Virus record (IMG/VR): IMGVR_UViG_3300023184_000047
Location: 1 to 34,056 of that record
Direction: 5' to 3' (one strand)
Origin: a virus
Taxonomy: Duplodnaviria > Heunggongvirae > Uroviricota > Caudoviricetes
DNA length: 34,056 nucleotides
This document shows positions 2,769 through 4,743 of this stretch, in pieces; position 1 is the stretch's first letter; every line of letters starts with the position of its first letter. The notes below the pieces were generated by a model. It saw nothing but the letters and a program-made list of their open reading frames with translations. It ran no database searches and had not been told where the DNA came from. Both the position numbers and the translations under genes were made by a program.

Positions 2769-3146
2769 ATGAACGAAACAACAACATTCTTAGGAACAAC
2801 AGGAACAACAGTAGGCTACTCAGGAACTTATGGAGGAGGATTTGCAACACCACTTAACGGAGGTAGTGGTACAACCATTTACACAGACAATACAATTTTA
2901 AGTACAGGAGTAACATTATCACAAGCAATAACAAATTCAAATAACATGAGCAAACAAGTAAAAGTAGCTGTATTTACAGTAGAAAGAAACGACAAAAATG
3001 AAGTAACATCTTCTAAATTTGTAAAAGAATTTTGGGTAGAACAAAAGAACGGAGGTTCAGTTGTATTAGCAGCAGCTAAACAATTAGATAAAGACTTCGA
3101 TCCAGACACGATTATGATTAGAGAAGTACAAGTAGTACAGTTCTAA
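2769..3146 (+). CDS. Hypothetical protein with Thr/Gly-rich N-terminal half (alternative start at 2946)
   Basis: ORF track; low-complexity N-terminus, then a globular-looking MSKQVKVAVF... segment. Confidence 0.7.
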   Translation: MNETTTFLGTTGTTVGYSGTYGGGFATPLNGGSGTTIYTDNTILSTGVTLSQAITNSNNMSKQVKVAVFTVERNDKNEVTSSKFVKEFWVEQKNGGSVVLAAAKQLDKDFDPDTIMIREVQVVQF

Positions 3147-3150
3147 AAAT

Positions 3151-3456
3151 AAAACACCTCCCAGTAGATAGGTCCGCCAAGAAAGTCTTTAAACAACGTG
3201 GGAACTGCGGCTCTCCCAATGTGGCTGGAATGTTTTATAAAAAAGTAACCCTAGTTATAAGGTCTTAAGTGGATAGGAAGCCCAGAGAAAATCGAAAGTG
3301 GATAGAATAATTTAAGAAGCTAAGTAATAGGGTACAAAATAAAAACTACTTGAGTAAGTGGGAGTGGTCAATCAACAACCCAAAGAAGTTCCAGGTAAAT
3401 CAATATGATATGGGATAGGCGAGCCTAAATCAGTAAGTAGCAAGTTAGTGTGTTTT
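3151..3456 (+). ncRNA. Candidate ~305-nt structured non-coding RNA, family not recognised
   Basis: ORF-free and GC-richer than its flanks. Nested helices found by eye: AAAACAC 3151-57/GTGTTTT 3450-56; CTCCCA 3158-63/TGGGAG 3359-64; AGTAG 3163-67/CTACT 3346-50; ACCCTA 3248-53/TAGGGT 3328-33 (extendable both ways); TCTTAAGT 3264-71/ATTTAAGA 3310-17; TAGG-CGAG-CCTA 3416-27. Strand inferred from neighbours. Confidence 0.6.
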
Positions 3457-3493
3457 TTCAAGGATTGAATAGTTTTTAACATTAGCGAAAAAT

Positions 3494-3570
3494 AGTCAGG
3501 TGGTGTAATGGTAGCAGTTCCAACGTCCACAAAACTAGGAAGAGTACAGGTTCGAATCCTGTCCTGATTA
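3494..3570 (+). tRNA. tRNA-like gene 1 with aberrant anticodon arm (identity undetermined)
   Basis: Acceptor AGTCAGG/CCTGATT + A73; D-loop AATGGTA; T-arm ACAGG-TTCGAAT-CCTGT. The anticodon region TCCAA...TAGGA encloses 12 nt rather than 7. No encoded CCA. Confidence 0.75.
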
Positions 3571-3576
3571 CAATGA

Positions 3577-3717
3577 GTTGATTACTCAGACAGCTATGTC
3601 TAGCTAGAAAGACATCGACATACTCTTGGGCGCAGACAAGAGCGGGTTTTGAAATCTATTTTCGCCGTTACGGAAACTAGGCTCGGAAGGCAACATATTT
3701 CGTGAGGTCTAATCAAC
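3577..3717 (+). ncRNA. Candidate ~140-nt multi-stem RNA between the two tRNA-like genes
   Basis: Closing helix GTTGATTA 3577-84/TAATCAAC 3710-17 continued by CTCA 3585-88/TGAG 3703-06; internal hairpins ATGTC.../GACAT and CTCTTG-GGCGCAGA-CAAGAG. Confidence 0.5.
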
Positions 3718-3730
3718 CATAATTGCAAAC

Positions 3731-3825
3731 AGTCAGGTGGCGGAATGGTAGACGCTAAAGAGTCAAAGAGTCGTGCTTCTAAACTCTGAGGTAACACCAT
3801 ACAGGTTCGAATCCTGTCCTGACTA
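3731..3825 (+). tRNA. tRNA-like gene 2 (Leu/Ser-type D arm, long variable arm) with aberrant anticodon arm
   Basis: Acceptor AGTCAGG/CCTGACT + A73; D arm GCG-GAATGGTAGA-CGC; same T-arm as gene 1; tandem AAAGAGTC x2; AGAGT/ACTCT stem with an 11-nt loop; GGT-AAC-ACC variable arm. No CCA. Confidence 0.75.
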
Positions 3826-3840
3826 CTATTTATACAAAAC

Positions 3841-4205
3841 GGGGATGACTGGTTTTGACAAGTTATAAGTAATTAATACAATTCAGCCCAGAGAGAGAAC
3901 TGGTAAAAACTAAGGTGAAATTAATAAATGGCAAAAACAATTCTCGTGTAGTGGCTCTAGGAGCAAACGCACAAATCGAAGCTAACATGAACAAAGTATT
4001 CTCTTTAATCGGAGAAGAAGTTGCTGTAGCAGCCTAAATTAAACAAGATTTCTTAGTTAGATTAAACTGAGTGGTGGTTTCGCTGGCTTAATTGTCGGCC
4101 CTAGAGTGCGCCTGTAGACTCTTTAAATAAGTATGGGGACAAAAGCTGTATAAAGTTGTATTGAAGAACATGGTTTGGACGCGGGTTCGACTCCCGCCAT
4201 CTCCA
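3841..4205 (+). ncRNA. ssrA: tmRNA (transfer-messenger RNA)
   Basis: 5' GGGGATGACTGGTTTTGAC and 3' GGACGCGGGTTCGACTCCCGCCATCTCCA. Acceptor GGGGATG/CATCTCC has the G3.U70 alanine determinant; internal ORF ends AVAA*. CCA not encoded. Confidence 0.95.
3930..4037 (+). other. tmRNA tag reading frame, (A)GKNNSRVVALGANAQIEANMNKVFSLIGEEVAVAA*
   Basis: Resume codon GGC follows AATAAAT; 35 sense codons to TAA 4035-37; C-terminal AVAA degron-like end. The resume point is inferred. Confidence 0.8.
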
Positions 4206-4232
4206 CTATTTTTAATTTTTAATTTAATCGTT

Positions 4233-4451
4233 ATGGCAAAGACCAAACTAAACCGCACTGCAAAGTTAGCATTTTACAATGCTCGCGAGCGTAAAGACGA
4301 CACAAATCGTTTAGCAGAAACTACAGGTTATACACCTCGTTTCATCAATTATGTAAAAAATGGTGAAAGAAAAGTAAATGATCCATTAGCAGACGCTATG
4401 TACAATCTTGCTCGAAGACGTGCAAAAAACAGCGCAGTATCTGCGAGTTAA
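4233..4451 (+). CDS. Small basic helix-turn-helix DNA-binding protein, 72 aa (true start 4233, not 4161)
   Basis: RLAETTGYTPRFINYVKNGERK fits a Cro/XRE-like HTH. The track's 4161 start lies inside the tmRNA. Confidence 0.7.
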   Translation: MAKTKLNRTAKLAFYNARERKDDTNRLAETTGYTPRFINYVKNGERKVNDPLADAMYNLARRRAKNSAVSAS

Positions 4452-4464
4452 TCAATTCAAATAT

Positions 4465-4482
4465 GCCCCTTATAGGAGGGGC
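4465..4482 (+). terminator. GC-rich hairpin, probable intrinsic terminator
   Basis: GCCCCT-TATAGG-AGGGGC directly after the HTH gene, followed by an A/T tract. Confidence 0.6.
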
Positions 4483-4506
4483 TATATTTATTAAAACTAT
4501 TAAAGT

Positions 4507-4743
4507 ATGGATGAATTTTTAAAATTTCCTGAATTAACAGATGAAGAATTAGATCAAATAATGATTGAATTTTTTGAATGGGATGCATTACAAGATTATG
4601 ATTTGGTAAATGAATTTGATGATTTTATTTATATCTCATATGATGAAGTTTTAAATAACCCAAATGATATTGAATTAGGTGCCTTAGTTAGAAAACGGTA
4701 CATAGAAACTCAAGATAAATTAAAAGAAAGTTCCTTATTGTAG
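4507..4743 (+). CDS. Acidic hypothetical protein, 78 aa
   Basis: ORF track; D/E-rich; ATATTTAT motif 23 nt upstream. Confidence 0.7.
   Translation: MDEFLKFPELTDEELDQIMIEFFEWDALQDYDLVNEFDDFIYISYDEVLNNPNDIELGALVRKRYIETQDKLKESSLL

Follow-up and report, generated by a model that had tools for sequence, protein, structure and literature searches.

The interval from 3150 to 3490 of the window, by which we mean the whole 34,056-nucleotide stretch of viral DNA analyzed here, is very probably a head-to-tail chain of three RNA modules and not one RNA. Module A (3150–3238) and module C (3340–3490), both on the + strand, are shown by comparison with related phages to belong to two uncatalogued families of small structured phage RNA, each with its own closing stem and its own loop–loop contact. 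The A-rich linker between them holds module B (3243–3336, + strand), a long imperfect hairpin. The recognition of A and C as two uncatalogued families, with borders and folds, is new; the abundant RNAs of Cellulophaga phage phi14:2 are the closest known counterpart. Modules that lie side by side will always fold with one another on paper, and comparison with relatives alone shows where the borders of an RNA lie.

The window is the opening 34 kb of an IMG/VR viral contig 117.8 kb long, from an uncultured freshwater phage related to Flavobacterium phage vB_FspM_immuto. Parts of the first 12 kb are 88% identical to immuto, the closest cultured relative, and the matches lie in flanking genes only, without A or C. 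The long ORFs around 3150–3490 are on the + strand in all cases; among those upstream of the island are a QueC homologue (1847–2764) and a 125-residue ORF of unassigned product that ends at 3146, directly before module A. No + strand ORF of at least 40 residues occurs in 3147–3493, and the module alignments (C set) contain indels of 1–2 nt. The interval 3147–3493 is non-coding and holds structured RNA of the + strand beside tRNA-type genes, and to this extent the preliminary description of the locus, as a non-coding structured RNA next to such genes in a phage, has been borne out. Genes of a 7-deazaguanine (queuosine/archaeosine-type) pathway, QueC among them, adjoin the island upstream (1–2764), and the corresponding region of immuto also holds QueD, QueE, FolE, DpdA, and QueF.

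Between 3150 and 4208 the order of elements, all on the + strand, is A, B, C, a tRNA-like gene, module S2, a second tRNA-like gene, and a tmRNA. A short linker of the GAAAAAU type separates C from the first tRNA-like gene (3494–3570), which matches the Rfam tRNA model with 40.4 bits; its acceptor, D, and T arms are normal, but its anticodon loop has 16 nt. The second (3731–3826; tRNA match 38.6 bits) has a 27-nt insert in its middle and is followed by the tmRNA (3841–4208; match 94.2 bits). Neither tRNA-shaped gene looks like a decoder; both have the look of scaffolds or of handles for processing. Neither ARAGORN nor the Rfam tRNA model reports a tRNA within 3147–3493, their tRNA-type calls being confined to 3494–3570 and 3731–3826. 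The phage has an ordinary array of 22 tRNA genes at 40.3–44.1 kb, 36 kb from the island, and A, B, and C are each single-copy in the 117.8-kb contig. The first + strand terminator-like site downstream is at 4465–4482, with none between the upstream ORF and that point and none inside the island.

Several smaller features of the island deserve mention. The two tRNA-like genes have acceptor and T-arm sequence in common (AGTCAGG... / ...CCTGAYTA) and non-decoding middles; a tRNA shape with an always-different middle recurs behind C in most loci. Module S2 (3571–3730, + strand), 160 nt long and ORF-free, lies between the two and has homologues in L023, L027, L052, L093, and L094 (E 1e-21 to 1e-39; L numbers designate the related loci compared here) and no Rfam match. 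Some 300 nt (4209–4506) extend from the tmRNA to the next clear ORF, with the terminator-like hairpin at their end; an ORF at 4161–4451 (TTG start) overlaps the 3′ end of the tmRNA and may be spurious.

The evidence for separate modules comes from the arrangement of the island in related phages. When 3147–3493 was compared with a starting set of 20 loci fetched via the neighboring 125-residue protein, its bases 1 to ~98 were 96–98% identical in seven loci and its bases ~185–345 were 89–94% identical in two; the middle, between ~98 and ~185, found no match in the 20 loci. The two conserved parts abut directly in L008, with the middle missing, and A and C are neighbors in L042 too, where B is absent. 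In the alignments identity starts and stops sharply at A-rich linkers, beyond which the flanking sequence is unrelated, and ~95 nt of A are 96–98% identical though the neighboring protein is just 50–70% identical. Since A and C occur apart, and are split at linkers in the relatives, 3147–3493 is a mosaic.

Wider surveys extend this picture. An exact pattern for A occurs in 36 IMG/VR contigs and a looser core pattern in 74; the exact 22-nt core of C occurs in 46, some of them phage contigs of more than 300 kb. A module map was made over ~95 loci, and neighbors were counted on distinct copies only (31 of C and 25 of the A1 type, one of the two clades of A described below). The element that follows A1 is module D in 14 of these 25 copies, a tRNA-like gene in three, module F in two, C in two, an E hairpin in one, and something else in three. 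Conversely, A lies within 140 nt upstream of 2 of the 31 distinct C copies, and a GGTTCGAnTCC T-arm lies within 140 nt downstream of 25. An A-type core is present somewhere on 21 of the 46 C-bearing contigs, and given these shared contigs the two may be functionally linked in trans. All modules have the orientation of the tRNA and tmRNA genes. In related phages A and C combine freely with D, E, F, S2, tRNA-like genes, and tmRNA.

A blastn search of 3147–3493 against 50,697 phage records (the INPHARED set of cultured phages) gave no match. The two families also seem to be restricted to phages: a search with a 20-nt core of C through 185,579 prokaryote species genomes returned a single match, in a Peptococcaceae MAG, which is ascribed to chance because its surroundings are coding sequence and its flanks are unrelated to those of C.

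The partners of A have features of their own. Module D, the commonest of them, is ~117 nt long and closed by UUACCAA/UUGGUAA (L021:3796–3910; also in L003, L004, L019, L023, and many others), and some copies contain an insert that resembles the tip of E. A ~310-nt RNA composed of F and a terminal E hairpin (L007:1747–2060) follows A in L007, L033, and L040. Related loci with A2, D, E, and F gave tRNA matches only in Rfam, and no family covers the modules.

Module A is predicted to fold as a junction of stems, ~90 nt in all, with a loop–loop pseudoknot. Three pairs of its closing stem P1 (3151–3156/3231–3236) and two pairs of the second part of that stem, P1′ (3161–3165/3224–3228), have changed on both sides. 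The hairpin P2 (3199–3203/3214–3218) never varies, so that covariation is uninformative there, and the hairpin P3 (3166–3169/3185–3188) is tentative because, while it forms in every variant, the registers differ. The pseudoknot pairs CCGC of the P3 loop (3174–3177) with GCGG of the P2 loop (3207–3210), with one pair changed on both sides. Junction strands and loops are invariant in sequence. The covariance model of the family, R1, recovered 55 copies, 34 of them distinct, which fall into clades A1 and A2 and one outlier, L071. The copy in the window scores 125.6 bits against R1 and has all of the family traits, namely the invariant core UUAAACAACGUGGGAA..GC.G.UCUCCCAAUG, the local P1/P1′ stem, and the loop–loop pseudoknot.

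The changes in A are compensatory. P1 is AAAACA/UGUUUU in A1 and CAUUAUCA/UGAUGAUG in A2, P1′ goes from CCAG/CUGG to UCGG/CCGA between the clades, and in L071 the pseudoknot has gone from CCGC/GCGG to CUGC/GCAG, with one compensated change. In the 34 distinct sequences, aligned by fitting to the model, 99.7% of the cells in the helices pair and six pairs change on both sides; because these changes mostly represent one split between A1 and A2, few independent events lie behind them. The covariation score was reached by none of 500 shuffles, and sliding the partners lowered pairing to 25–58%.

Module C, ~150 nt long, is predicted to contain four helices. P1 (3347–3352/3392–3397) is invariant and its covariation is uninformative. 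P2 (3359–3362/3379–3382) encloses an invariant 16-nt loop, and its closing pair changes from U-A to C-G in seven sequences. The outer pair of P3 (3412–3416/3423–3426) occurs as A-U, U-A, G-C, and G-U, and in P4 (3444–3451/3479–3486) six of the eight pairs have changes on both sides. Over an alignment of 28 distinct sequences nine pairs change on both sides, a score reached by none of 500 shuffles, and sliding the partners lowers pairing from 93% to 30–46%. The frequent G-U pairs fit only the + strand, which is therefore taken to be the transcribed one. A kissing contact is probable between UCAAUC of the P2 loop (3368–3373) and GAUUGA of the large P4 loop (3463–3468): UCAAUC is invariant, GAUUGR is found in all 28 sequences, and the whole 16-nt P2 loop is identical in all 28. 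Since neither side varies, the contact is not proven. The complement of the invariant loop, sought in this genome with up to two mismatches, gave no meaningful match except C itself.

The window copy displays the traits of the C family, which are the 22-nt core GGGAGUGGUCAAUCAACAACCC, the four helices, a P4 loop that contains GAUUGR, and, directly downstream, a tRNA-like gene, here at 3494. The C alignment extends over the linker and into the AGTCAGG start of that gene, which is probably the signal by which processing fixes the 3′ end of C. Transfer RNA shapes serve as cutting signals in 3′-end formation of the MALAT1–mascRNA type and in the tRNA punctuation of mitochondria, both eukaryotic; for C, cleavage is predicted. 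C resembles these systems in being fixed a few nucleotides upstream of a tRNA shape, and the retention of acceptor, D, and T arms around a non-decoding middle fits the pattern of an RNase P/Z cutting signal.

The hairpin B is of a different kind. Its base, 3245–3259 paired with 3321–3335 on the + strand, is the long bulged helix of the preliminary description, and the 10-nt direct repeat noted there, AAGTGGATAG, was found again at 3267–3276 and 3296–3305, in the tip. Of the C-GAAA-G tetraloop proposed at 3293–3298 the letters are present, but the stem behind them is absent. The folding z-score of B is −1.17. Nhmmer searches over ~100 related loci and across the whole genome recovered nothing but B, and a 21-mer scan of IMG/VR gave no homologue; a search of IMG/VR for the spaced direct-repeat pattern yielded nine loci, all unrelated. 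B is absent at the other A–C junctions, L008 and L042, and from one contig of an RNA library in which 3237 is joined to 3336, so that A abuts C as it does in L008.

B would seem to be a hairpin specific to this phage lineage, possibly a diverged hairpin of the E type. The latter have a conserved base (ACCCUAC..UCUUAUA / UAUAAGAAAGAGGGU) and a hypervariable tip; one ends the ~310-nt F–E RNA of L007 and of phi14:2, and another directly follows A in L026. Aligning the base of B with E-type hairpins gives 24 invariant columns across six sequences, a likeness that falls short of significance. B is missed, even at E 100, by a profile HMM built from the five E copies; it ranks first in the window with an E covariance model, yet with 13.1 bits and an E-value of 0.36.

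The preliminary description had read the interval as one highly paired RNA of ~305 nt, with an end-to-end stem and a possible pseudoknot, and had proposed a new or reduced large ncRNA class, possibly catalytic. The pairings to which it appealed do exist in the window. They comprise a 7-bp end-to-end stem (AAAACAC 3151–3157 / GTGTTTT 3450–3456) and two 6-bp cross pairings (GGAACT 3201/AGTTCC 3387 and CTGGAA 3225/TTCCAG 3389), and the A–C pair of L008 could form the same end stem. They are, however, not conserved. Of 28 C homologues just 8 could form the end stem, and in most of these 28 C lacks an A alongside; in L042, where A and C do adjoin, the stem is broken. The cross pairings are lost, with no compensation, in 7 of the 28, the strand in A being invariant while that in C varies; by our own estimate, ~0.3 such hexamer matches are expected by chance within C if G-U pairs are allowed. 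The 5′ strand of A covaries with its local partner at 3231–3236 and not with the distal one. With the end stem and the hexamer pairings not conserved and the 5′ strand of A covarying locally, the one-RNA model is rejected as very improbable.

Two further observations bear on this alternative. First, A and C are apart in most contigs, and the middle third is without a homologue and is missing where A and C adjoin; in place of a single RNA there are three modules that occur independently of one another, and each is closed by a stem of its own. The search for homologues and covariation favored the local stems of A and C, which are compensated, and lent no support to the end-to-end stem or the A–C pairings. 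Second, the interval is not highly paired as a whole. The minimum free energy of 3147–3460 is −58.4 kcal/mol, as against −62.9 ± 5.3 kcal/mol for shuffled sequences (z +0.84); 80 of 100 dinucleotide shuffles fold at least as well as the + strand, and the − strand folds no better. Folded singly, the parts containing A, B, and C have z-scores of +0.10, −1.17, and +0.47, respectively.

The absence of a known family from the interval was confirmed. With Rfam 15, cmscan was run on the whole window at gathering thresholds and on 2900–4400 at E up to 10 with lax filters, and neither run gave a match in 3147–3493. The covariance models of GOLLD, ROOL, raiA, HEARO, and OLE found no match there at E up to 10, nor did those of RNase P RNA and of group I and group II introns. 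GOLLD (RF01998) and ROOL (RF03087) are, like A and C, phage-borne structured RNAs that often lie near tRNA genes; they are single RNAs of more than 500 nt, whereas here three units of 90–150 nt occur separately. A reduced GOLLD- or ROOL-like RNA is thus not what is found, as the conserved units are only ~90 and ~150 nt long and separate, and the ~94 nt between them have no homologue. A GAAAGUC-like string in A (3182–3187) was considered by eye as an RNase P P4-like motif and set aside, as it has no conserved partner strand. A P4-like pairing of the GAAAGUC of A with AAAGAAGUU of C was likewise rejected, on account of its poor register and the lack of linkage between A and C.

Small self-cleaving ribozymes are common in phage and metagenome DNA, and A, C, or both might be ribozymes that cut the precursor at the module borders. 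Compact folds with pseudoknots or kissing loops, invariant junctions, and a location between RNAs that need to be separated would suit such a role. None of the small self-cleaving ribozymes of Rfam 15 (hammerhead, twister, twister-sister, pistol, hatchet, HDV, and others) and none of its riboswitch classes matches 2900–4400 at E up to 10, however, and the tRNA-like elements already supply processing signals, so that self-cleavage is quite improbable.

In architecture alone, A recalls the three-way junction of the purine-riboswitch type, with a closing stem and two hairpins whose loops pair. In A the loop pairing is CCGC/GCGG and the junction strands are invariant. Unlike such riboswitches, A has no Rfam riboswitch match and neither an expression platform nor a downstream ORF, and A2 lies between tRNA genes. 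A likeness by description can also be drawn to the T4 species 1 and 2 stable RNAs (rnaC and rnaD), small non-tRNA RNAs of the T4 tRNA cluster that are made from shared precursors. The host of T4 is E. coli; A and C, by contrast, carry loop–loop pseudoknots and are common to many phage contigs of the Bacteroidota type. No description of modules A, B, C, D, E, or F was found in the literature.

The closest parallel is provided by phi14:2 (L110), which like the window has an ORF-free island with a tmRNA in a phage of Flavobacteriia. Abundant long non-coding RNAs have been reported at its g004–g005 and g005–g006 junctions, and transcription of this RNA island is reported to exceed that of most protein genes at the first time point of infection and on through to the last (Drobysheva et al., bioRxiv 10.1101/2020.03.07.982082). 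The ORF-free region, 2905–4601, holds F–E (at 2905–3360, where the g004–g005 region starts) and the tmRNA. Its F–E is a homologue of the module that follows A in L007 and L033; A and C themselves were not detected in phi14:2 by profile or covariance model. The transcription data are thus independent support for this kind of island and not for A and C. ARAGORN identifies the phi14:2 tmRNA at 4031–4500, with the tag GSSVQKLAMVA, and the Rfam tmRNA models score below their gathering score.

Large phages of aquatic Bacteroidota carry whole islands of uncatalogued structured RNAs amid tRNA-like genes and tmRNA, of which A and C are the two most widespread modules in our survey, and in phi14:2, the single cultured example, RNAs of this kind rank with the most abundant transcripts of the phage. 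With exact borders, testable folds, and alignments for A (74 contigs) and C (46 contigs), what had been a vague structured region becomes a set of defined RNAs for synthesis, probing, and knockout.

Evidence on expression comes from assembled contigs of public RNA runs, in which DNA carry-over is possible and RNA ends are invisible. Contigs from four aquatic metatranscriptome studies cover A (3146–3243) and C (3339–3491) with at least 88% identity, and several RNA-library contigs carry neighboring modules of other phages. An A2-type variant in RNA-library contigs was missed with a 20-mer and recovered with a looser pattern. The segment 3264–3307, inside B, has no contig cover, which is not counted as absence. 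Thirteen further RNA-run rows contain about one module's worth of sampled words each, and none contains half of the stretch; as shares of words these figures are only a hint. The contigs fit transcription of separate modules in many aquatic phages. Because they may be DNA carry-over and show no ends, we infer rather than observe transcription, co-transcription, and processing.

These data bear on the idea that conservation operates at the level of DNA, through recombination, packaging, protein-binding sites, or a small mobile element, or that the modules are decayed tRNA genes. The shuffling of modules between genomes at A-rich linkers has a mobile look, and expression in this phage is inferred and not proven. 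Set against this are the compensatory changes and the many G-U pairs that fit one strand, the orientation that the modules share with tRNA and tmRNA genes, and the cover by RNA-library contigs. Decay is at odds with near-identity over 90–150 nt, which is unlike that of decaying pseudogenes, and with the failure of both tRNA-finding programs to report a tRNA in 3147–3493. An origin of this kind is extremely improbable.

The best overall explanation, and a likely one, is that the island is a modular chain of small RNAs, made as a co-transcribed precursor and cut into discrete RNAs. A single + strand precursor would run from the upstream genes through the whole island, tRNA-like genes and tmRNA included; co-transcription with the upstream genes is proposed because no terminator-like site precedes 4465–4482. 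The precursor would then be cut into discrete RNAs of ~90, 94, and 150 nt. Host enzymes of tRNA processing, RNase P and RNase Z, may cut at the tRNA-like elements, and a cut by RNase P at ~3493/3494 would set the 3′ end of C, while endonucleases could cut the AU-rich linkers. The invariant loops and junctions might subsequently bind a conserved phage or host factor. Whether the modules are released as separate trans-acting RNAs is a more tentative matter, the chance of which we put slightly below even.

The position of A bears on this last point. In the A1 copies whose surroundings were examined, no other RNA element stands between A1 and the protein gene before it, and in most A1 loci the TAA of a small lipoprotein-like ORF (...VAVSC..., ending ...DTTTVK*) lies inside the 5′ strand of P1. 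A2 is found inside canonical tRNA arrays, in most copies 4–5 nt after a tRNA, and 0–2 tRNAs from the start of arrays that continue for many tRNAs. It is conceivable that the modules are real RNAs that act in cis on the precursor and are not released. A would then be an element at the head of an operon, concerned with processive antitermination or protection from Rho in the manner of HK022 put RNA or an rRNA leader, or a fold that organizes processing, and C would serve the tRNA-like gene that follows it as a structured leader.

Such a role is in keeping with the single A and single C of this genome, with the 25 of 31 C copies fixed a few nucleotides before a tRNA-like gene, and with the invariant junction and loop sequence, and the strong bias of A toward the heads of operons fits it at least as well as it fits a released RNA. 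The bias may, however, reflect gene order inherited among related phages. There is no terminator-like site inside the island to override, no likeness to put or boxA was seen, and a stable RNA that is released would likewise be expected to be compact and closed by a stem. Action in cis is accordingly regarded as a minority possibility, ranging from unlikely to one of some weight, and the cut precursor is retained as the preferred reading.

More elaborate proposals are rather improbable. In one of these A would constitute a new cis-acting class of RNA placed where untranslated RNA operons of phages, whether tRNA arrays or tmRNA islands, begin: a kissing-loop three-way junction that binds RNA polymerase or a small ligand and keeps transcription going through kilobases of untranslated, structure-rich RNA. 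C would then form another new class, acting jointly with the tRNA shape behind it; or either might be a new class of self-cleaving ribozyme.

Two minor observations on A may be added. The 3′ strand of P3 in clade A2 carries ACCUCCUUA (L067:10400–10495, − strand, and ~20 other loci), the sequence with which E. coli 16S rRNA ends on its 3′ side. The likeness is probably due to chance, the corresponding letters in clade A1 being GUCUUUA. The small ORF upstream of A, which encodes 55–75 residues in L007, L008, L021, L026, L028, L036, and L039–L044, has a lipoprotein-type signal, LVAVSC, and VDST repeats, and its TAA stands exactly 10 nt before the CCAG of A.
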